Below, piece after piece: positions 1,886-17,603 of a DNA stretch of 17,603 bases. The notes beneath the pieces are model-generated. The model was given only the letters and a program-made list of their open reading frames with translations, was not told the DNA's origin and ran no database searches. Positions within the stretch are counted from its first letter, which is position 1, and every line of letters starts with the position of its first letter. The stretch is from a virus (taxonomy: Duplodnaviria; Heunggongvirae; Uroviricota; Caudoviricetes), in IMG/VR virus record IMGVR_UViG_2703718840_000011; one strand, 5' to 3'. Both the position numbers and the translations under genes were made by a program.

Positions 1886-2688
1886 TTGCAAGGAGCTATC
1901 ATGCACACTGAGTATATATGGCGATATCTTGACATAGAGAAGTTCTCTATGTTACTCGAACAAAATGCTTTATTTTTTTGCTCAGCAAAAAATTTTGAAG
2001 ATCCGTTCGAAGGTGAATTTGCTTGGGGACATACTGGCTATAAAAAATTCATTGAGACACAGGAAAAACTATGCGCTACTCATGGTGCCGGCATGGACTT
2101 AGAGCCTTTCATGGCATTCAATTTAAAGACACTTAAGGAAATAAGCGAGAGGACATATATAAGTTGCTGGCATTGTAACGAACATGAATCTGAAGCTATG
2201 TGGAAGCTGTATTGTAAAAACCCCGCTAAAGGCGTTGTCATAAAATCAAAGAAAAAAACCTCCAAAGCCAACTTGAAAATAATAATCTAAACAAACTACA
2301 ATTAAAACACGTAAAATACATCAAAAATTTCTGGATAAAACAATACAATCCAGAATCAGATGTATTCTTTAACAAGAGACCATCTTTCGAACACGAAAAA
2401 GAGTTTAGAGCTATTTTTCAAGAGAATACCTTTAACACTCCACCTGTAAAGGGAAAATTAGTCCCTGTATCTCTTAATAATCTGTTGGAAGAAATAAGGA
2501 TTTCACCTTTCGCAGATAAGGATTTCAAAAATGAAGTTTTACAAATTTCAAAAAAATATGGACTAGATCTAAAAGTCAAAAACTCTGAAATTGAAATGCA
2601 TCCCATCATGCATGTTGAGGAAGAAATAATTGCAGAAGGCCCCAATTGGTATCAGTCAAAAATCAGGTTGGCAATACGTGATGCTTAA
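1886..2688 (+). pseudogene. DUF2971-like protein gene interrupted by a -1 frame change in an A7 run (track ORFs 1886-2290 and 2485-2688 are the two halves)
   Basis: N-terminal half carries the DUF2971-like signature (RYLDIEKF...LFFCSAKNFEDPFEGE). Frame 1 is open from about 2230 to 2688 and continues the protein sensibly. Adding one A to the A7 run at about 2252-2258 would fuse both halves into one ~267-aa ORF, a typical DUF2971 length. Confidence 0.6.
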
Positions 2689-2791: not shown

Positions 2792-3376
2792 TTACTCCAT
2801 AACAGGGACAGCAGGCCACTCAATATCCGGTGCTACTGATGTATCAACACGGTTCAGCAACACCCGATACTTTTTCCAGGCTTCCAGCAATGAGGTTTCT
2901 TCCTCCGTTGCAATTTCCAGATCTGCAGCATCCTGAAGCGGCGCAATATGCTCACTGGCTACCTGCATCAGGTTGTTTTTTGTTTCTTCCGCCTCCCGGA
3001 TCCGGAACAGTTTTTCTGCTTCCGTATCCTTCACCCAGGCTGTGCCGTTCCACTTCTGAAACTCCCCTTCCGGCGATAACCAGGTAACATTTTCCGGTAA
3101 CGGACCGAGTTCAGAAATAAATAACTCGTCCCCTGACGCTACGTCATAAACCGTTTTACCCCGATGGTCTTCAACGAGATGCCACGATGCCTCATCACTG
3201 TTGAAAACAGCCACAAAGCCAGCAGGAATATCTGGTGGTGCAATATCGGTACTGTTTGCTGGCAGACCTGTATGAGGCGGAATATATGCGTCACCTTCAC
3301 CAATAAATTCATTAGTTCCGGCCAGCAGATTATAAATTTTTATGGTCCGTGCTTGTTCACTCATTCTGAATGCCAT
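2792..3376 (-). CDS. tfa: Tail fiber assembly protein (Tfa family, lambdoid type)
   Basis: 194-aa [57 protein letters not shown]... closely matches Tfa proteins of E. coli lambdoid prophages as I recall them. Start overlaps the stop of the upstream stf-type ORF (TAATG). Confidence 0.85.
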
Positions 3377-4522: not shown

Positions 4523-5660
4523 TCAGCTAATCGTGATGCCTGCAGTGGCTTTCTTCATCACCACAACCAGCAAATCGCTGATACTTGCTGTGGGATACCA
4601 GTTATTTACCAGCCATGCTGACACCGAAAACTCCAGTGTCATGTGACCGTGACCGGCAGGCATATCAATAACACCACTGTAAATCAGCGTATTATCCAGC
4701 GCGGTACGGTTATAAATTTCAGCACCGTTTTTCCGTACTATCAGGCGGCATAACGAATAAATATCGTTATTCTCCCGCTCATGTTTAGCGCCGCTGAATG
4801 CCACCGCCGGAATAACAATCTGCCGGTCAAACGGCTGATCGTCATAAACCCTGACGGTGATGGTCCCTGATGGCCACCGTTCCGGTGCACGGGAGTCCCG
4901 GGGGAAAGCTTTGCCCACTGTTTTAACGAGATCGCCTTCAATCTGGTTGGCGGACAATTTTCCCAGAACCCGACAGTTCTCGTTAATCGTGACGTTGTTG
5001 AGCGTCCCGGAGTTCGCATTCACGTTACCGCTGATATCGGCATTTTTCGCCGTCAGCCGCCCGTCCGGTGTCAGGGAAAATGCCGGAGGATTACCGCCGC
5101 TGGTAATGGTCGGAGCCGTCAGGCGTTTCAGGAACACGTCGTTCATGAATATCTGATCGCCCTGACCAACAAACATCGGCTTTGTGTTGCCATTCGCAGG
5201 ATTAATCATCGCAATCCGGTCAGCAGCCAGAAGCACCTGACTCTGCATACCTGCTGGCGTATTCTCAATACCGGCTCCGATACCCGCAATATAAAGGCGT
5301 CCGTCCTTCATCTGCTGCAGTTTCACGGCCCACATGCTGTTCAGGTTATTATTTGTATCAACCTGAACTTTCTGTATCTGCTGGATTGCCGCACTCTGGT
5401 CTTCCAGTTTTTTATTGACGGTCTGCGTGATTTCATTGCTGACATTCGTAATGGACGTCCTGATTTCAGCCAGGTCCGGCGCAAGCTGACCGTTATCAAT
5501 CTGCGTCCACAACTCCTGGGCCAGATGTGTTTTCCCGATTTCTCCTTTGAAAAAATCCAGGTAACCTTCCGCATCATCGCTCGCCCGACCGACAGCCTCC
5601 ACGAATGCCGATTTGCCAACGGTGTTCACACTGCGAACGTAAAAATAATAATCATGGCCC
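4523..5660 (-). pseudogene. C-terminal ~380-aa fragment of J-type host specificity (central tail fiber) protein; N-terminal two-thirds deleted
   Basis: Translation from ...[39 protein letters not shown]... through [30 protein letters not shown] to the C-terminus matches the C-terminal region of lambda J as I recall it. The first ~34 codons of the track ORF (starting at 5758) are out-of-frame read-through of rusA sequence. Full J proteins are about 1100 aa. Confidence 0.7.
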
Positions 5661-5891
5661 GGTTTGATATTGATACTGGCGGCTATCCGGAGGAAACAAC
5701 ACGATCTCCACTGAAGCAGGTGCCGACGTTGGTTTCGGCAGGCGACGTAACTGCTCAACTATTGCTGCGCACGCCGCGCTCTGGAATTTGCGCCCCGCTG
5801 CGCTTATCAGACTCTTACCAGCAAACGCCCCTTTGTTGGGGTGTCGCCAGTACGTGTTCACGCTGGGCGGAAAAGGCAGGATCAGCTTCAT
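5652..5891 (-). pseudogene. rusA: RusA-family Holliday junction resolvase, N-terminal fragment (truncated at the deletion junction with J)
   Basis: MKLILPFPPSVNTYWRH... matches the RusA N-terminal LPxPPSxN motif. The ORF ends after 79 aa with non-homologous residues (YQYQTGP), whereas RusA is about 120 aa. GAGAGGGG RBS and ATGA overlap with the upstream gene are intact. Confidence 0.55.
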
Positions 5892-8165: not shown

Positions 8166-8776
8166 GCGTTAGTTTCTCCACAACCAGAAGCAATCGACGC
8201 CACGACGCCCGGAGCTGCACACTCGCGGGCGTCATTACTTTCTGAAATGCAAAAAATTTTGTAGACAAGTGCTGCATGCTCCTGCAGCTTCGAAATTGAG
8301 AGATACAGCTCGTCGTTAATTGCTGTCTTCTCATGCGGTTCCACTACACCGTCTTCGATTGCTGAACGAATCTGTTTTGAATAACTGCCGATCTGTTCAA
8401 TGACTTCCAGCAGACGCTGGTTAATATCGGCGTTGTCCACATCCTCGACGTCAGGAAGAGACACAAAGACGCCATTTGCAGACTGCGCCACAGCATCAGC
8501 AATGAAGTGAGTTCCACCAGCACGTTGCAAAATCATTGCCCATCCCAGCGGGAAAATCTGATCGCCATCAGCACGAAGGCGGTTAAATAATGCGTTCTCT
8601 GTTACATCCAGCCAGTCAGCTGCTTCAGCGTAACCACCCGGCAACTTTGCGATAGTTTTTCTGACAGCTTTCACGTACCACTCAGGCTGTTTTTCTACTT
8701 TCCAGTGATGCTTACCCACGGTTAGCCTCATCGTTCTGTGGTTTCTGTTAATCGATTTATCCATTAGATTTTTCAT
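8162..8776 (-). CDS. CII-like regulatory protein (phage 186 CII / YdaT-like); start uncertain
   Basis: Sits immediately downstream of cro. The segment [25 protein letters not shown] resembles the 186-CII-type motif (LRNKLNPEQPHQFTPPELWLL). The track ORF begins at a GTG (8833) inside cro; in-frame ATGs at about 8776, 8764 and 8731 are more plausible, none with a strong SD. Confidence 0.45.
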
Positions 8777-8957
8777 AAAGCTCAGGTTTAAATGGCAACC
8801 GTCCGCAAGTTCTATATGCAGCTTCTGCTGCACGTCCTTTTGGAATTAACTGGCCCGGACGGTTTCGCCACTGATAAACGGCTTCAGTTGTTATGCCGAA
8901 AAAAGCAGCAACTTTCTCAATACTGCCGAAGTAGCTTTCGATATCGTCAGTTGTCAT
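8757..8957 (-). CDS. Cro-like small HTH regulator (YdaS-type)
   Basis: 66 aa, divergent from the cI-like repressor with a ~97-bp operator-containing intergenic region; GGAGGG RBS. HTH-like segment VAAFFGITTEAVYQWRN. Confidence 0.65.
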   Translation of the reverse strand: MTTDDIESYFGSIEKVAAFFGITTEAVYQWRNRPGQLIPKGRAAEAAYRTCGRLPFKPELYEKSNG

Positions 8958-9054
8958 ACGCCCTCCAAACTAAGTTTTATTAGATGCTAATTACAAATCT
9001 ATCTTTGGTCAATAAAAACTAAGATTACTTAGCAATTCAAGAAATGGTGCTCCT
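8958..9054. promoter_or_regulatory. Immunity switch region (OR-like): divergent promoters with palindromic operator candidates
   Basis: Palindromes TTAGATGCTAA (about 8980-8990) and CTAAGATTACTTAG (about 9019-9032); ACTAAG repeated at about 8969 and 9018. Candidate minus-strand promoter TTGACC-17 bp-TAGCAT whose -10 overlaps the first palindrome. Confidence 0.4.
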
Positions 9055-9681
9055 ATGGAAACGGTTGGTCAGCGTATAAAAGCTCTGAGAAGAGTTACCA
9101 GAACGTCCCAGAAAGAATTGGGTAAATTTTGTGGAGTAAGCGACGTTGCTGTGGGGTACTGGGAGAAAGACATCAATACCCCTGGTGGGGAGGCACTTTC
9201 GAAATTAGCGAAGTTCTTCAATACGTCAATAGATTACATTCTTTATGGTGCTGAGTTTGAAGGCAAACTCGTCACAAACATGCGCAGAGTTCCTGTAATA
9301 TCGTGGGTTCAGGCTGGGCAGTTTACTGAGTGCAGGGCAGCAGAAGTGTTTAGTGAAGTGGACAAGTGGGTAGATACATCATTAAAGATTGGTGATAACT
9401 CATTTGCATTAGAGGTTAAAGGTGACTCCATGACTAACCCTAATGGCCTCCCAACAATACCAGAAGGCGCAACAGTGATTGTAGATCCAGATGCAGAACC
9501 TCGTCATGGAAAAATAGTCATCGCTCGACTTGATGGAACAAACGAAGCTACAGTAAAAAAATTAGTCATCGATGGCCCTCAAAAGTTTTTAGTGCCATTA
9601 AATCCTCGGTATCCCAACATCCCTATCAATGGTAATTGCCTTATCATTGGTGTAGTCAAAGGAGTTCAATACGAACTCTAA
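9055..9681 (+). CDS. cI-like prophage repressor (N-terminal XRE-type HTH, C-terminal S24 LexA-like autopeptidase)
   Basis: 208 aa; HTH QKELGKFCGVSDVAVGYWEKD; C-terminal domain with Ser nucleophile in GDSMTNP and Lys in ATVKKLVIDG, the hallmark of RecA-stimulated self-cleaving repressors. Confidence 0.85.
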   Translation: METVGQRIKALRRVTRTSQKELGKFCGVSDVAVGYWEKDINTPGGEALSKLAKFFNTSIDYILYGAEFEGKLVTNMRRVPVISWVQAGQFTECRAAEVFSEVDKWVDTSLKIGDNSFALEVKGDSMTNPNGLPTIPEGATVIVDPDAEPRHGKIVIARLDGTNEATVKKLVIDGPQKFLVPLNPRYPNIPINGNCLIIGVVKGVQYEL

Positions 9682-9695
9682 GACCTCTCTTCTCT

Positions 9696-9763
9696 AACTA
9701 AGGCACCGAACTAAGAAAAGTTTGGTGTTTTCTCTTGCCATAATAACTAAGTTAAGTTAGATT
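9696..9763 (+). promoter_or_regulatory. PL-like early-left promoter/operator candidate immediately downstream of cI
   Basis: Three AACTAAG copies (about 9696, 9709, 9745), sharing the ACTAAG core seen in the cI-cro intergenic region. Candidate promoter TTGCCA (about 9735-9740), 17-bp spacer containing AACTAAG, TAGATT (about 9758-9763). Confidence 0.35.
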
Positions 9764-9865
9764 TTATGTCAAAGATAACGAACAGGCAGGACGCCCACGA
9801 AGTAGCCGCCGGTGGCGTATGAATGACCGGATGATTCGTTAAATACTATGTGTAAGAGAGCGCAA

Positions 9866-10068
9866 ATGAACCGTTATTTCACATGCTCGTTTTGTGGCGC
9901 AAACGAGCTGCAGGCAAAAAAATCATCGCCAAAGGCGGAAAAGATGAAGTTGCTATCTGCTCTGAGTGCGTAGTCTTGTGTGTCGGAGCATTAATCAATA
10001 TCAGCACAACTATTCAGTTCACACCAAATGAGAATGCGCCTTTAGATGCGCGGAAATCTGGAGGTTAA
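9866..10068 (+). pseudogene. Small ClpX-N-terminal-type C4 zinc-finger protein ORF, split by a -1 frame change at an A7 run (slippery heptamer A AAA AAA)
   Basis: ATG at about 9866 opens MNRYFTCSFCGANELQAKK..., which stops after 35 codons. The track ORF 9883-10068 in the -1 frame continues ...KKIIAKGGKDEVAICSECVVLCVGAL. Joined, they give CSFCG...ICSECVVLC, similar to the ClpX zinc-binding domain (YCSFCGKSQHEV...YICDECVDLC). The frames meet in the A7 run at about 9916-9922. Confidence 0.5.
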
Positions 10069-10076
10069 AGAACAAA

Positions 10077-10352
10077 ATGAAAGTCCAGATTTTAAACAAT
10101 AGTGGTGAAGTCGTTTGGTCATACGACATAGCCGCTCCTGTAGATCAGAGCGGCGATAGCTGGACCAATGGGAAACATCAGATTATGGCTGGAGTTGTAT
10201 TCTCTTTACACCGTGCTTTGGAACAGGCTGAAGTATTTCCATCAGACCCTGAATGGAAATGGCCTTTTTCTATTTGTCCAAATTCGGAGAGCACATTTCA
10301 GAAAATTGGTCAGAAAGTCGCACTCGAAGAGCATCAGCCAACTGTTTTCTGA
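10077..10352 (+). CDS. Hypothetical protein (91 aa)
   Basis: GGAGG about 10 nt upstream of the ATG and immediately after the stop of the zinc-finger ORF, which is operon-like. No family recognised. The 3' end overlaps a convergent ORF. Confidence 0.45.
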   Translation: MKVQILNNSGEVVWSYDIAAPVDQSGDSWTNGKHQIMAGVVFSLHRALEQAEVFPSDPEWKWPFSICPNSESTFQKIGQKVALEEHQPTVF

Positions 10353-10515
10353 TTTTTTCAGGTAACTCGTCGGCATCGCAGAAACAACAACGCTCGATCA
10401 TGTTGAAAGCCGATTCGTAGAACTGTTTCTGCTGAGTGTCGCTGAGACAGGAAAAGAGCGACGTTACGATGATTTTATTAATTGCATTATCAAGTTCTTT
10501 TTCATCAAAAGTCAT
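10270..10515 (-). CDS. Hypothetical protein (81 aa), convergent to the early-left operon
   Basis: Plausible amino-acid composition; AAGGAAAA RBS-like sequence 5-6 nt upstream of the ATG. Its 3' end overlaps the + strand 91-aa ORF by about 83 bp, so one of the two is probably shorter or not real. Confidence 0.35.
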   Translation of the reverse strand: MTFDEKELDNAINKIIVTSLFSCLSDTQQKQFYESAFNMIERCCFCDADELPEKIRKQLADALRVRLSDQFSEMCSPNLDK

Positions 10516-10769
10516 TTGATTTTCCTTTTATGTATACGGGCTTAAAAGGATACCACCGAGCCTGAAGTGGTGAAAAGACAGGCACATAACAGCTAAGTAT
10601 TTTCAACCAGAGAGAATCCTTAGCGTTGTGGTGAATGCGGCTCAGCGCACGCGGGTTAAGGTTGAGGCTGACAGTCGACCTTCTGTGGATACCCACCCGT
10701 CTGGTGTGCAACCTTCGCCAGGCACCGGGAGGCACCCGGCACCACAACTTTATGCTGTGTGTAGTCCTG

Positions 10770-13433: not shown

Positions 13434-13494
13434 TTATCAGGACTGAAATTTGATATTACTGCCCGTGTGCAGCGGGTTAAGTGGAGAAACAGCC

Positions 13495-13704
13495 ATGGCA
13501 AAACTAATGAAAGCGAGCCAATGGGGACGCCGTGAATTCTCTAATGGCTCAATTCCTGACAACCGAACGATAAAACGCTGGGTCGAGAACGGTCTGCTCA
13601 TGGGGCGTATAGTGGACGGTTCTGTTTTTGTCTGCGAAACAGAAAAATGGGGAGTCGACTCAATGGTTAGTCAAGCTGTTCGCAAGTTAATAAATGAGGG
13701 ATGA
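13495..13704 (+). CDS. xis: Excisionase (lambda Xis-type)
   Basis: KASQWGRREFSNGSIPDNRTIKRWVENGLLMGRIVDGSVFVCETEKWGV parallels lambda Xis (LQEWNARQRRPRSLETVRRWVRECRIFPP...GREYLFHESAVKV). Start chosen at the ATG with GGAG 8 nt upstream. Its stop overlaps the integrase start. Confidence 0.6.
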   Translation: MAKLMKASQWGRREFSNGSIPDNRTIKRWVENGLLMGRIVDGSVFVCETEKWGVDSMVSQAVRKLINEG

Positions 13705-14885
13705 CCATGGCGGCAAGGCCACGTAAAAAAGAATACAGACATCTTCCTGATTATCTGGTTTTTGATAAAGATCGAGGTGTTTATAAATTCACACTTATTA
13801 CCGGAAAAAAGAAAAATATAGGTAAGGATCGGGCAATAGCCGTTGCAATCGCCAGAGAGTACAACCTGAGGATGCGATCAGAATTATACCCATCAGTGGA
13901 TAATCTTATTAGAGAATCTGGCGGGGTCACCGGAGAAGCAAAACCATTTGCTGAACATGTCGATCACATAATGGCCAGAATTATCGAAGACGAACGACCT
14001 TCCCAGAGTACCTTAGATGACTGGAAAAATGACGCTCTACGCGTAAAAGCATTTTTCGTAAATGTTCCGGCATGCGATATCGAACTTGAACACGTTAATG
14101 CCTACATCAACAAATATCATGCCAGCGCATCCGCAAATGTGCAGAACAGAAAGGTCAGCTTTCTTAAAAAGTTGTTCTCTTATGCGGTCGATGAATCACT
14201 AATGCAGGATAACCCGGCCATCAGAAAAAAAATGCGTAGGACTGATGAGAAGAAAAGACGGCGCCTGTCACTCGAGCATTTTATAGCTATCAGGCAGGCC
14301 GCTGCACCATGGTTAAGAACAGCAATGGACCTAGCATTGCAGACTACACATGCACGACTCGAAGTATCGCGAATCCGTTACTCAATTCGCGAACCTAAAG
14401 ACGGTTTATGTGGATGTGTTTGGTTCGAACAACCACAAAATGGCATATATGGTACACTATACATCCATAGGCAAAAAGTACAAAAAAAGGAGGCATCACA
14501 TGTTGCAATACCAATTGGTGAAGAATTGAAACGGATAATTGACAATAGCCGTGACAATGTGGCCAGTCCCTTTGTCGTTCATAGAATCCCAGAACGGCAT
14601 GTTAAACGCAGTAAAGAGGTTTCGCACCCAACTCAAGTTGCACCAGATTATTTGAGTCGGTCATTCTCTTCCGTGCGAGACAAACTCGGACTATGCAATC
14701 ATCTAGCAATGGAACAAAGACCTACATTCCATGAAATAAGAGCTTTGGCAGCTCACCTATTTGATAAACAAGGGATTGATCCGCAGGGACGAATGGCACA
14801 TAGCGATGCGAAATCTACTAAAATTTATACTAAAAATCATATAGATTGGATTGTTGTCCCTCATGGAGAAATTAAAACCGGTTAG
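13701..14885 (+). CDS. int: Tyrosine-type site-specific integrase (lambda Int family)
   Basis: 394 aa. C-terminal catalytic region with H-x-x-R (TFHEIRALAAHLF) and the tyrosine motif (MAHSDAKSTKIYTKNH). Arm-binding-like N-terminus. Xis immediately upstream. Confidence 0.9.
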   Translation: MTMAARPRKKEYRHLPDYLVFDKDRGVYKFTLITGKKKNIGKDRAIAVAIAREYNLRMRSELYPSVDNLIRESGGVTGEAKPFAEHVDHIMARIIEDERPSQSTLDDWKNDALRVKAFFVNVPACDIELEHVNAYINKYHASASANVQNRKVSFLKKLFSYAVDESLMQDNPAIRKKMRRTDEKKRRRLSLEHFIAIRQAAAPWLRTAMDLALQTTHARLEVSRIRYSIREPKDGLCGCVWFEQPQNGIYGTLYIHRQKVQKKEASHVAIPIGEELKRIIDNSRDNVASPFVVHRIPERHVKRSKEVSHPTQVAPDYLSRSFSSVRDKLGLCNHLAMEQRPTFHEIRALAAHLFDKQGIDPQGRMAHSDAKSTKIYTKNHIDWIVVPHGEIKTG

Positions 14886-15022
14886 TTATTAAATTCTCCA
14901 CTTTATTTTGACTGACAATAACGGTTGCTAAGGCATAGAGTAAAGCTTAATTTAAAAGGCAGTTCTATGCCCATTTACCATAACTCCTCCCTTGTCCAGA
15001 AAGCAATATTTATTAATAAAAT

Positions 15023-15985
15023 TTATTTACCCTTATTATACTCTTCAGTAATCTTATTCATGGATGATATATATTTATCCAGCCCACCATAGTTGGCTAT
15101 CATTCGAAATGAATTACGGTACTCTGCCATTTTCACATCATGATTAGTAATTCCACACCAGCCACAAACTTTATTTTCCATGTTTAAAGGCTCATAACAT
15201 TTTTTACATTGCCTTGATGCAGGTATTATATTGCCATTAATAAATTGGTGTGATTTGAGATTTTGAGATAAAAGAAATGGTGTAGTTGTTGTTTTTCCTA
15301 TTACCATTTCGAAATATCTACATTTAGCCTTTTTAGCTAAAGATTGAATTTTCTGCTTTAATAAATCATTTGATTTGTGCCCAACTATAACTCCAGTTAT
15401 ACAATTAATCGGTACCGGAAGGAGCATAAGATTGTCATTCAGTTTAGTAAGTGCTTTCTCATTAATTATTACGCGACGTTCCTGCTCATAACTCCAGCAA
15501 GTTTGTTTTGTCAAATATGCGGCTGTCATTATACAGGATTGTAGCCAGTAGATATAACGAGGTTTACAGATATGAAATGCTCTCGCCAGAATGTCTTCAA
15601 TACCTGTATCTGGAGAATCTTTATATTCAACATCTGCTATTGAACTATGATCCTGGAAGCCGATTTCATCCAAATACTTTTTAAACTTCTCCTCATTAAT
15701 CTCTATTACAAAACCAGAAGAATTACCTGCATAATGTGCCCACATAGGTGGTATCACAGGGCTTTTCGTAAAACAAGTTGCTGGTTGTTTTGTAACCATG
15801 CCAATCATTTCATTGTAAAATGCTAACTCATCAGAACCGCGATTAAAATCAATAGTAAGGAAAAACTCATAGGGATCATTATATTCATGTAAATGAGAGA
15901 ATTTTATTCCTATATGTGTTTCATCCATCATCAATTTATCAATTATATCCGCTCCCATAAACTTATACAAATTGGTCATATACAA
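15023..15985 (-). CDS. DUF2971-family protein with C-terminal CxxC...CxxC zinc ribbon (320 aa)
   Basis: N-terminal NLYKFMGADIIDKL...IKFSHLHEYNDPYEF matches the DUF2971 hallmark (LYKY...FS.P..FNDPFE). C-terminus CKKCYEPLNMENKVCGWCG. AAGGAG RBS 7 nt upstream. Strongly AT-rich gene and flanks. Confidence 0.75.
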   Translation of the reverse strand: MYMTNLYKFMGADIIDKLMMDETHIGIKFSHLHEYNDPYEFFLTIDFNRGSDELAFYNEMIGMVTKQPATCFTKSPVIPPMWAHYAGNSSGFVIEINEEKFKKYLDEIGFQDHSSIADVEYKDSPDTGIEDILARAFHICKPRYIYWLQSCIMTAAYLTKQTCWSYEQERRVIINEKALTKLNDNLMLLPVPINCITGVIVGHKSNDLLKQKIQSLAKKAKCRYFEMVIGKTTTTPFLLSQNLKSHQFINGNIIPASRQCKKCYEPLNMENKVCGWCGITNHDVKMAEYRNSFRMIANYGGLDKYISSMNKITEEYNKGK

Positions 15986-16065
15986 CTCCTTTTTTATAAA
16001 ATAACATTTTAAATCATATGATTATGGAGGCACAAAATCCAGTAATTAGTTTTCAAGCCGGTTGT

Positions 16066-16428
16066 GATGTAGTTCGAGGACAAACTGAAACGTATTATTG
16101 ATAACAGTCGCGATAACGTTGCCTGCCCGTATATCGTTCACCGTATACCGAGCGTAATAACAAACGCAGTAAAGAGGTATCCGCACCTGCCTATCTTAGC
16201 CATACTTTTCATTGCCCCGTGATTCGTTAGGCTTGTGTAATAATTTGACGATGGAGCTGCGCCCCCACATTCCACAAAATACGCGCACTAGCTGCATTTT
16301 GTTTGATAAACAGGGAGTAGACCACAAGGGCTCATAGCCCACAGCGACGCGAAATCAACGAAAATTTATACGCGGAACCATATGATTGGGTAATGCTTCC
16401 GCACGGTGAAATTAAATACAATGCATAA
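16066..16428 (+). pseudogene. Decayed 3' fragment of a second, related tyrosine integrase gene
   Basis: Seen directly: nucleotide similarity to the 3' end of the intact integrase (e.g. identical AAACGCAGTAAAGAGGT; ...GCGATGCGAAATC.ACTAAAATTTATAC...; ...CACGGTGAAATTAAA). Translation gives KLKRIIDNSRDNVA.P.IVHRIP, then frameshifts and stops, then ...AHSDAKSTKIYTRNH...PHGEIK. It lacks the 5' two-thirds of the gene. Confidence 0.65.
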
Positions 16429-16462: not shown

Positions 16463-16846
16463 TTAGGACGCTTTAGACTTGGTCATATTAGCGCAACGCT
16501 GGATTAATTTCTCTGCAGTCTTAATCGCGGTGCTTGATTGGGTTGGCGTAATAGTGTCGTTAAGTCTGTAATCACAAACTATTCTCTGATCCTTAAGCGA
16601 TTGAAGAGCATACCCCAAACCAATTAAGTCTCTTTTTTCAAAAGGTTCGTTACCCTTCCAAGCATCGTTAACAAGATAGTCAATGAGGCCTTGGTGACTT
16701 TCTTTCGGCCCCATGGTCAAACACGGAAGTACGTGGTGATAAGCACCATAATACGCACGTGCGACAGCGTTTCTGTAACCAATTTCGTCGTTACGCTTTT
16801 CACAATCTTTTGCGAAAGCGATAAAATCGGAACTATTAACTGGCAC
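16463..16846 (-). CDS. Hypothetical small protein (~127 aa from a GTG start); possible Rx6H HEPN-like motif (speculative)
   Basis: The track ORF starts at ATG 16897, which would overlap the upstream gene by 62 nt. An in-frame GTG at about 16846 is preceded by a perfect GGAGG 7 nt upstream (inside the 3' end of the upstream gene). The motif RAYYGAYHH is noted. AT-rich. Confidence 0.5.
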   Translation of the reverse strand: MPVNSSDFIAFAKDCEKRNDEIGYRNAVARAYYGAYHHVLPCLTMGPKESHQGLIDYLVNDAWKGNEPFEKRDLIGLGYALQSLKDQRIVCDYRLNDTITPTQSSTAIKTAEKLIQRCANMTKSKAS

Positions 16847-17603
16847 GCGCAGGTTCCTCCAAACGCCCTTCAAACCATACGCTGAAGGGTTTTCCAATCA
16901 AACTTTCATTTTCTGCAAGAGAAAATGCTATATCCAAGTTCATATCAGAGAGAACATCAGAATCTTCAGTATTAACTGCCATGACATATGATGACGTACG
17001 CTCTTCAGGGATAGAGCAGAAAGACATAGCAACAGGACTAACTTTATGGTCAGCCATGATATCCACTATGCGGTTTGCAATATCCTGTAGTTCTTCATCA
17101 GTAATTCCAGTTGCACTTTTGAAGGTCGTGGATTGGGCCAGTGCTGTGGCTGCGAGGTGCTTAACCAATTCAGCCTCCTTTTCATCTACCATACTTATCA
17201 ATCTCTCAGCATAGTAGAGCGCTTTGTCAATACGCCCCAAGAACAAGTTAGCTTCCCATGCATGGGACAGCATCGTAGGGGAGTTATAACGTTCAACTAA
17301 TCGATTTACCACTTGTTCAACTTCACGGAAGCTGCCGTAATCGTTGAGATAAACTACATAATTTTGAGCAATGATCAGGTTGTTATGCTTCAATGCTTCT
17401 TCAAAGAATGCAACTGCAGTATCTTTACGCCCAAAAGCACCATTAGCCAACGCTTTGAGATAGTCCTCAGATGCGCTGTCGCGCAACTTTTCTATATCTC
17501 TGATATAACGAAAATATTGCATTTCGGATATCGTATTCCGAGCCGCAAGAATATCGATTAATTCACTGCTGATTTCGTTCGCTTTTAGCGCCGGCTGTGG
17601 CAT
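16836..17603 (-). CDS. Hypothetical alpha-helical (TPR-like) protein, 255 aa; 5' end at the window edge, possibly partial
   Basis: Long ORF whose ATG coincides with the last bases of the window. Helical repeat-like composition (YLKALANGAFGRKDTAVAFFEEALKHNNLIIAQNYVVYL...). Its 3' end contains the RBS for the downstream gene. Confidence 0.55.
   Translation of the reverse strand: MPQPALKANEISSELIDILAARNTISEMQYFRYIRDIEKLRDSASEDYLKALANGAFGRKDTAVAFFEEALKHNNLIIAQNYVVYLNDYGSFREVEQVVNRLVERYNSPTMLSHAWEANLFLGRIDKALYYAERLISMVDEKEAELVKHLAATALAQSTTFKSATGITDEELQDIANRIVDIMADHKVSPVAMSFCSIPEERTSSYVMAVNTEDSDVLSDMNLDIAFSLAENESLIGKPFSVWFEGRLEEPARAS

Follow-up and report, generated by a model that had tools for sequence, protein, structure and literature searches.

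The stretch of DNA analysed here (17,603 nt; IMG/VR record IMGVR_UViG_2703718840_000011, Caudoviricetes), referred to as the window, is part of a lambdoid prophage that carries an intact gene for a 318-aa DUF2971 protein between its integrase gene and the attachment site attR. All coordinates are those of the window unless another locus is named. The gene is the first described representative in the integrase-to-attachment-site (int-att) slot of an Escherichia coli prophage of a zinc-ribbon-tailed clade of DUF2971 proteins, a family of ADP-ribosyltransferase (ART) defence candidates. Both the family and its association with defence are already in the literature, as is the prediction of an ART fold, and the present result refines and extends that work. 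We favour, as the reasonably probable reading, that the product is a single-chain, prophage-encoded defence enzyme of the abortive-infection type that would use NAD+ to ADP-ribosylate a macromolecule upon infection. The gene and the signals around it are:

15023..15979, minus strand: intact DUF2971/PDC-S31 gene, 318 aa plus stop, with a predicted ART-fold core (residues ~1-230) followed by a clade-specific C-terminal tail
15986..15991, minus strand: Shine-Dalgarno sequence AAGGAG, six nt ahead of the ATG, read off the sequence
16006..16035, minus strand: weak candidate promoter TTGTGC-18-TAAAAT, present in the sequence but below the scanner threshold
14947..14972, minus strand: terminator-like hairpin (14957-14972) with a T-rich tail, between the convergent integrase and DUF2971 genes

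The initial annotation had proposed an intact, AT-rich gene next to the prophage integrase, and the open reading frame (ORF), the base composition and the RefSeq coding sequence all agree with it. The GC content is about 33% (31-34%), compared with about 45% for the window, and the same 318-aa coding sequence is annotated at the identical locus in RefSeq as WP_000183538.1, “DUF2971 domain-containing protein”. The reading frame in the ORF listing, 15023..15985 on the minus strand, is real and gives the 320 aa originally reported if counted from a TTG at 15985, but the likely start of the product is the ATG at 15979, two codons further on. The AAGGAG ribosome-binding site was found where it had been predicted. 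The proposed promoter is also present, and its region is partly conserved with the DNA upstream of the Klebsiella aerogenes orthologue; however, its −35 element agrees at only 3/6 bases, and the number of promoter-like sites near the gene is no higher than expected from shuffled sequences (7 versus 7.6). A single terminator-like site occurs in 14850-16150, where 0.4 would be expected. No Rfam family matches near the gene, and repeats in its vicinity amount to nothing meaningful apart from a duplicated integrase 3′ end, with no repeat array. There is no adjacent ORF of substance in the window and no room for an antitoxin or other partner.

Assignment to the family is secure. The protein scores 39.3 bits with Pfam DUF2971 (PF11185), for which the gathering cut-off is 22 (E=1.8e-9, residues 79-170), and 45 of 45 clade members match this model too. 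It also matches all five PADLOC models for PDC-S31 (E from 4.9e-22 to 6.8e-7). There is also a PHROG match; the PHROG and PDC-S31 matches all stop near residue 229. No NCBIfam model matches the protein. The N-terminal DUF2971 signature by which the initial annotation had recognized the family lies outside the Pfam match, although the LYKF...NDPYEF block to which it refers is indeed conserved across the clade. Among 5.8 billion clustered proteins, 48 relatives that align over their full length were found (33-99% identity, ~305-320 aa), and for 47 of them a PF11185 match is precomputed. When one genome per species was scanned, relatives were found in 117 of about 185,000 species genomes, a rare and patchy distribution that takes in Alpha-, Beta- and Gammaproteobacteria, Desulfobulbaceae, Desulfuromonadaceae, Campylobacterales, Actinobacteria, Chloroflexi, Nitrospirae and others.

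Evidence for the nature of the N-terminal core came from structure prediction, which the initial annotation had proposed while calling the activity of the family unknown. An AlphaFold model of the 318-aa protein is confident (pLDDT 90.5) and is closest to DarT DNA ADP-ribosyltransferases and to Tpt1, with fold-match scores of 8.5 for Mycobacterium tuberculosis DarT, 7.9, 6.9 and 6.3 for three Tpt1 structures, 6.7 for Thermus DarT and 6.0 for E. coli DarT1. Lower-ranked matches include many other ADP-ribosyltransferases, among them Rhs ART toxins, poly(ADP-ribose) polymerases, pertussis-like toxins and scabin. Foldseek independently placed four Thermus DarT entries at the top, weakly scored. 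A search of BFVD viral folds gave nothing significant, and sequence-profile searches against Pfam, PADLOC and the Protein Data Bank (PDB) gave no tie to DarT, AbiG or a solved structure. ARF GTPases returned by the PDB search with the clade profile (E>=0.35) share only a short “PxWxHY” resemblance, which was judged to be chance.

These results agree with a 2025 survey that places DUF2971 in the HYE clade of ARTs (PMC12522546). The survey describes a poorly conserved motif I histidine, a strict motif II tyrosine, an ExE motif III and large helical inserts, and finds DUF2971 nearest to DarT, AbiGi and Tox-ART-HYD1 (PMC12522546). Helical inserts are present at residues 127-156 of our model, as in that survey (PMC12522546). 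Because an ART fold had already been predicted there (PMC12522546), the activity of the family is no longer wholly unknown, and the statement in the initial annotation needs amending to that extent. From the model, the 318-aa protein is likely to be a catalytically competent ART. That its substrate is a nucleic acid, as the resemblance to DarT and Tpt1 together with the zinc ribbon suggests, can be put forward only tentatively.

The pattern of residue conservation is consistent with this fold. It was read from sets of 45 and 77 homologues, the larger of which spans Proteobacteria, Actinobacteria, Chloroflexi and other phyla at 32-83% identity. Among the 77, the residues K6, N34-D35-P36-x-E38, C69-F70, P78-M-W-A-H-Y83, G89, Y119, K139, R141, Y155, K158, W162 and Y164-E165-x-E167-x-R169 are invariant or nearly so. 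The zinc-ribbon residues C258, C261, E263-P264, C272, W274 and C275 are invariant in both sets, and about 40 residues in total are unchanged across phyla. The codons of the principal N-terminal motifs are:

15866..15880, minus strand: NDPxE motif, N34-D35-P36-Y37-E38, invariant or nearly so in both the 45 and the 77 homologues
15731..15748, minus strand: P78-M-W-A-H-Y83, in the helix after the C69-F70 strand, invariant in 77/77; putative region of the ART motif II tyrosine
15479..15490, minus strand: Y164-E165-Q-E167, at the start of a beta strand; putative ExE motif III, with Y164, E165, E167 and R169 present in 77/77

Two of the features described for the family therefore have counterparts here, Y83 within PMWAHY and E165-x-E167, each present in 77/77 and placed by position. 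Equating PMWAHY with ART motif II is putative, resting on position rather than on superposition and following the published description (PMC12522546). K6, NDPxE, C69-F70, PMWAHY and Y164-E165-x-E167-R-R169 are putative NAD-binding or catalytic residues.

The gene is under purifying selection and its function has been kept, with a ratio of nonsynonymous to synonymous substitution rates (dN/dS) of 0.10 against the K. aerogenes and Pantoea orthologues. This bears on the alternative that the gene is functionless prophage cargo in decay, as a frameshifted relative at the other end of the same element would be. While the prophage is itself probably defective and the relative is broken, the present gene is intact and 99-100% identical in 53 E. 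coli genomes. Together with the dN/dS ratio and the invariant residues, these conservation data largely refute the decay explanation, which we regard as barely credible.

Beyond the core, the protein carries a second conserved module:

15026..15280, minus strand: C-terminal module, residues 234-318, a small beta sheet, a zinc ribbon and three helices
15155..15208, minus strand: Cys4 zinc ribbon C258-x2-C261-x10-C272-x2-C275, reading C258-K-K-C261 and C272-G-W-C275

The spacing between the two cysteine pairs had been given as x14, but the translation gives x10. Zinc-ribbon models in Pfam match weakly (DZR, E=0.024), and the module (~85-90 aa) lies outside every PDC-S31 and PHROG match. A phmmer search with the tail alone against 1.84 billion representative proteins gave 50 matches, consisting of ~305-317-aa proteins (DUF2971 where the N-terminus was detectable), fragments and three unrelated multi-zinc-ribbon proteins. 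The idea that the tail is a promiscuous, shuffled sensor domain was rejected, since it occurs essentially only on the DUF2971 proteins of this clade. By sequence, the tail is a signature of the clade. The high predicted template modelling score (pTM) suggests that it packs against the ART core, and it may act as an autoinhibitory or sensing element.

The genomic neighbourhoods of homologues address both the question of a partner gene and that of function. The 428 ORFs flanking 80 homologues (three per side) fall into 404 clusters, the largest with three members; there is no conserved partner gene, and this is a single-gene system. Several homologues lie on mobile elements. One in Morganella follows Dam and Lar in a prophage nin region; one in Edwardsiella lies between a Q remnant and a holin gene of a prophage, on the opposite strand; one in Pseudomonas syringae is at a prophage edge; and one in Pantoea adjoins the alpha primase of a P4-like satellite. 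The int-alpha region of P4 is the P4 defence hotspot. A Serratia homologue stands beside a type III restriction-modification (RM) system in an element with ParM and DUF3987, and the context of a Rhizobium homologue has no clear assignment.

For distant homologues, the context considered was the 150 immediate neighbours of the 80 homologues. Pfam families among them include SIR2_2 (3), AAA_23 (3), ResIII (3), TIR_2 (2), UvrD (2), AAA_21 (2), HNH_2 (2), integrases (2) and transposases (4), and PADLOC matches include LmuB (3), ThsA (3), GajB (2), DRT reverse transcriptase-helicase (2), mad3 (2) and PDC-S66 (2). This is roughly one neighbour in ten, a figure that by judgement, without a background model, we would expect to lie well above that for random genes. 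The association of homologues with prophages and defence islands, anticipated before any search was made, is thus borne out by prophages, a P4 satellite and neighbours from Lamassu, Thoeris, Gabija, DRT and restriction systems.

Some of these contexts could be read differently, with the protein as a lytic-cycle ART that serves the phage itself through host takeover or counter-defence, as T4 Alt, ModA and ModB do. In Morganella prophages the homologue belongs to the early-right operon, where it points the same way as the replication genes and immediately follows those for Dam and Lar (restriction alleviation), which speaks for this explanation; the existence of a PHROG for the family also fits. 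However, transcription of the gene runs counter to the phage operons, or is separate from them, in E. coli, K. aerogenes and Edwardsiella, and many homologues are located outside prophages, beside Lamassu, Thoeris, Gabija or RM genes or in the P4 satellite. Moreover, tblastn against phage genomes gave one weak partial match in 50,697 records (a Klebsiella phage-plasmid), in line with the lack of a significant BFVD fold match. We therefore consider a phage-serving role improbable.

The lack of a partner bears on a further alternative, in which the protein would be an addiction or selfish toxin that stabilizes the prophage, or would kill stressed cells and have no role aimed at phages. In favour of this are the ART toxin fold, with its relation to DarT, and a patchy distribution on mobile elements. 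Post-segregational killing normally needs an unstable antidote, and here there is neither an antitoxin nor a conserved neighbour, making this explanation distinctly unlikely.

Finally, the protein could be secreted to act on eukaryotic targets as a virulence effector or toxin, a role that has been proposed for the Legionella DUF2971 protein lpg1268 and is known for type III effectors carried by E. coli prophages. Effectors of enterohaemorrhagic and enteropathogenic E. coli are found as low-GC cargo at the ends of lambdoid prophages, which counts in favour of this proposal. About 18% of DUF2971 proteins are predicted effectors (PMC12522546). Against this, members of the clade come from soil, marine and plant bacteria as well as from E. 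coli lineages of many kinds, no secretion-system genes were present among the neighbours examined, and the nearest folds are the nucleic-acid ARTs DarT and Tpt1 rather than protein-targeting toxins. Taken together, an effector role is very unlikely.

The favoured reading is therefore that of an anti-phage enzyme. Phage exclusion or abortive infection had been suggested as a possibility from the outset, and the suggestion gains support from the PDC-S31 match, from the presence in the same Pfam family of the defence protein Aristaios, from the DarT-like fold and from the contexts described above. The enzymatic activity, target, trigger and defence phenotype that we infer for this protein would run as follows. 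The gene is accessory (moron) cargo in a variable slot between the integrase and attR, and its product would be a self-contained anti-phage protein of the superinfection-exclusion or abortive-infection type. The N-terminal two thirds would form a DarT/Tpt1-like ART of the branch that acts on nucleic acids. The protein would be made in the lysogen yet held inactive, with the C-terminal module serving as a sensor, gate or nucleic-acid clamp. Infection by another phage would then lead to NAD+-driven ADP-ribosylation of DNA or RNA or, less probably, of an essential protein, and the modification would stop the phage from replicating while sacrificing the infected cell.

A more specific proposal, about which we are doubtful, is that the clade represents an antitoxin-free, single-chain relative of DarT, a nucleic-acid ART restrained and switched on by its own zinc-ribbon/helical tail. 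If this were true, self-restraint of an ART by its own tail, whether sensing a phage cue or clamping the substrate, would be a distinct regulatory solution for ART immunity. With no antitoxin required, one may ask how an enzyme that uses NAD+ and could be lethal stays silent within one polypeptide, and the invariant motif residues and cysteines offer ready targets for mutagenesis. If active, the E. coli prophage member would join a very small set of ART defence effectors (DarT, CmdT and Aristaios). The gene is present in the clinically important sequence types ST131 and ST167, in which prophage exclusion could affect host range in phage therapy.

The element that carries the gene is a lambdoid prophage integrated in tRNA-Pro (proL), between yejM and yejO. 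Its left end reads tRNA-Pro, a DinI-like gene, a DUF4236 gene, a second DUF2971 gene and tail-fibre genes, and its right end reads integrase, the 318-aa DUF2971 gene, an integrase remnant, two hypothetical genes and attR, a 54-bp repeat of the proL 3′ end at 23157-23210 of locus L001, just past the window. With both ends read out in this way, the DUF2971 finding lies wholly inside attL-attR. ARAGORN found no tRNA in the window or in loci L001-L003. The two integrase sequences in the window are:

13701..14885, plus strand: intact lambda-type tyrosine integrase, convergent with the DUF2971 gene (Pfam Arm-DNA-bind_1, weaker integrase-domain matches; RefSeq)
~16074-16416, plus strand: degraded 3′ part of another, divergent integrase, corresponding to residues ~275-392 and interrupted by frameshifts and stops

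The position of the gene between an integrase and a decayed second integrase, as initially annotated, is upheld by two lines of evidence: tblastn with the intact integrase finds the remnant, split over two frames (E=8e-20), and RefSeq annotates a partial, frameshifted recombinase pseudogene. The remnant is ~75% identical in DNA to relatives, and a repeat of the integrase 3′ end (14802-14842 and 16343-16383) recurs 1541 nt apart. Tandem integration was rejected as the source of this arrangement, since a search of the stretch from the DUF2971 gene to the remnant gave no additional att core; the sole 54-bp proL repeat is attR. The cassette could have arisen either by recombination or by deletion within the integrase. 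The remnant and its two reverse-strand genes look like the relic of an earlier occupant. As a secondary part of the doubtful proposal outlined above, the int-att slot of proL-integrating lambdoid phages would swap cassettes by recombination at integrase 3′ ends, leaving scars.

Comparison between genomes shows that the int-to-att slot is a variable cargo position. The DUF2971 gene is carried at 99-100% identity by 53 of 5,426 complete E. coli genomes, always as a single chromosomal copy with the same integrase allele and downstream block; the carriers are varied and include ST131, ST167, enterotoxigenic E. coli, and bovine and lettuce isolates. A further 57 E. coli genomes have an integrase allele of ~91% identity and other cargo in the same slot, such as a gene for a 289-aa protein in LD91-1 (L002 7645-8514) or genes for 283-aa and 66-aa proteins in APEC O78 (L003 7444-8500). 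These alternative genes are on the reverse strand and have PHROG matches only, with none in Pfam or PADLOC; they could be further uncharacterised exclusion genes. The K. aerogenes orthologue is 82% identical and occupies the same int-to-att(tRNA-Pro) slot of a related prophage, without the integrase remnant, and DNA homology between that prophage and the window spans 13461 to 16018. Because K. aerogenes shares the pair without the remnant, the integrase and the DUF2971 gene form an ancestral unit.

The broken relative mentioned above lies at the tail-fibre end of the prophage:

1901..2688, plus strand: second, remotely related DUF2971/PDC-S31 gene, inactivated where the A run at 2252-2258 causes a −1 frameshift (PADLOC, Pfam and comparison with E. 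coli C51)

Its truncated ORF, 1886..2290, matches PDC-S31 models in PADLOC, and the restored protein matches PDC-S31 (E=1.2e-21) and Pfam DUF2971 (E=2.2e-6). A single difference separates it from the intact 262-aa gene of E. coli C51, the run of eight A residues being reduced to seven at 2252-2258. The description of a second, broken DUF2971-like gene was thus accurate. However, calling the two genes paralogous overstates the link, as they are remote homologues only: the 318-aa protein and the restored protein align with E=0.024 in BLASTP, and hhalign of the second protein to the family of the first gives E=7e-5 at 17% identity. NDPxE-like, MW..Y and ExE motifs align between the two, and the second protein is without the zinc-ribbon tail. 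DNA of the second gene is present in 147 complete E. coli genomes, some of which annotate an intact DUF2971 protein. Both the intact A8 run and contracted versions are common among the 147, and on/off switching of this gene at a slippage-prone run is conceivable.

Adjoining the broken gene, at 487-1689 on the plus strand, is a gene whose 400-aa product begins with a DUF4236 domain (E=7e-21); it has tRNA-Pro/DinI on one side and the tail-fibre genes on the other, matches PHROG 17982, of unknown function, and has no PADLOC match. More than 500 plasmids of Klebsiella, Enterobacter, Salmonella and E. coli (e.g. NZ_CP097193.1 16464-17141) encode a shorter DUF2971 protein, which shows 28% identity over residues 1-215 and lacks the zinc-ribbon tail. 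These matches define a second, very widespread plasmid-borne branch of DUF2971 in the Enterobacterales.

Several further observations concern the prophage as a whole. At approximately 5684-5760, a lambda J-like tail gene reduced to a C-terminal fragment (ORF 4523-5758, minus strand) abuts the 5′ part of rusA and a gene for a LexA-family regulator. The segment 5684-6214 corresponds to L001 10862-11392, and in a fuller relative the junction points are separated by Q, by the lysis and terminase genes and presumably by those for head and tail. This copy is probably internally deleted and defective, with both cargo ends kept. The immunity region (8745-10552), which includes the S24-peptidase repressor at 9055-9681, shares only 76 bp of DNA (9766-9841) with the prophage of E. 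coli CFS3313, although the two prophages are ~98-99% identical elsewhere; this divergence is ordinary lambdoid mosaicism. The only Rfam match in the window is IS009 (RF02111, 221 bits) at 2835-3033 on the minus strand, inside a tail-fibre-assembly gene.

The two genes beyond the integrase remnant, encoding a 144-aa protein (16463-16897, minus strand) and a 255-aa TPR-like protein (16836-17603, minus strand), have PHROG matches of unknown function and no PADLOC match. CRISPR spacers of ~20 other E. coli genomes are 100% identical over 33 nt to 16577-16609 and 16993-17025, one protospacer in each gene. The spacer carriers include LY180, whose array adjoins queE, KO11FL, a DH5alpha record and STEC719. 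Both protospacers, on the minus strand, start with G after AT, the canonical type I-E protospacer-adjacent motif (PAM) ATG. Identical spacers with a PAM indicate that E. coli CRISPR has sampled this two-gene cargo module.

Among known systems, the precedent within the family is Aristaios, a 316-aa DUF2971 protein encoded by a single gene on the Lactococcus plasmid pUCCL641_199, for which an abortive-infection phenotype has been shown (PMC11381338). Aristaios acts after DNA injection and has been modelled as an ART, with the ART domain covering most of the protein (PMC11381338). It resembles the 318-aa protein in domain, size, stand-alone gene and ART-like predicted fold, a comparison made by description rather than by sequence. 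It differs in having a Gram-positive host and a plasmid carrier, as opposed to an E. coli prophage, and there was no lactococcal match among the matches listed in the plasmid search.

PDC-S31 is one of 145 untested defence candidates that PADLOC lists on the principle of guilt by embedding, their genes lying within BREX, DISARM and type I RM loci (bioRxiv 10.1101/2024.01.29.577857); a literature search on the name “PDC-S31” found no papers. The 318-aa protein shares with PDC-S31 the match to all five hidden Markov models, a single-gene architecture and the lack of a recurrent neighbour. It differs in its zinc-ribbon/helical tail, which extends beyond the models, and in that this copy occupies a prophage int-att slot rather than lying within BREX, DISARM or RM.

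DarT, the thymidine ADP-ribosyltransferase of DarTG that acts on single-stranded DNA, provides the structures nearest to the modelled ART fold. However, none of the 45 clade members matches Pfam DUF4433/DarT at E<=1, and PADLOC gives no DarT match at E<=0.1. The 318-aa protein has large helical inserts, an added zinc-ribbon tail and no adjacent DarG: it is flanked by the integrase and the integrase pseudogene, and the 25 Pfam families listed for the 150 immediate neighbours include no macrodomain family. Judging from the model, it resembles DarT in fold and probably in chemistry, yet it is not a DarT. Tpt1/KptA is a housekeeping RNA-repair 2′-phosphotransferase with an Arg-His-Arg-Arg tetrad, and its genomic context is wholly different from that of the DUF2971 gene. 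CmdT of CmdTAC (PMC9519451) offers a parallel as an ART-fold effector used for anti-phage defence on E. coli mobile elements. An antitoxin and a chaperone accompany CmdT; the 318-aa protein, which has no PADLOC sequence match to CmdT, is partnerless.

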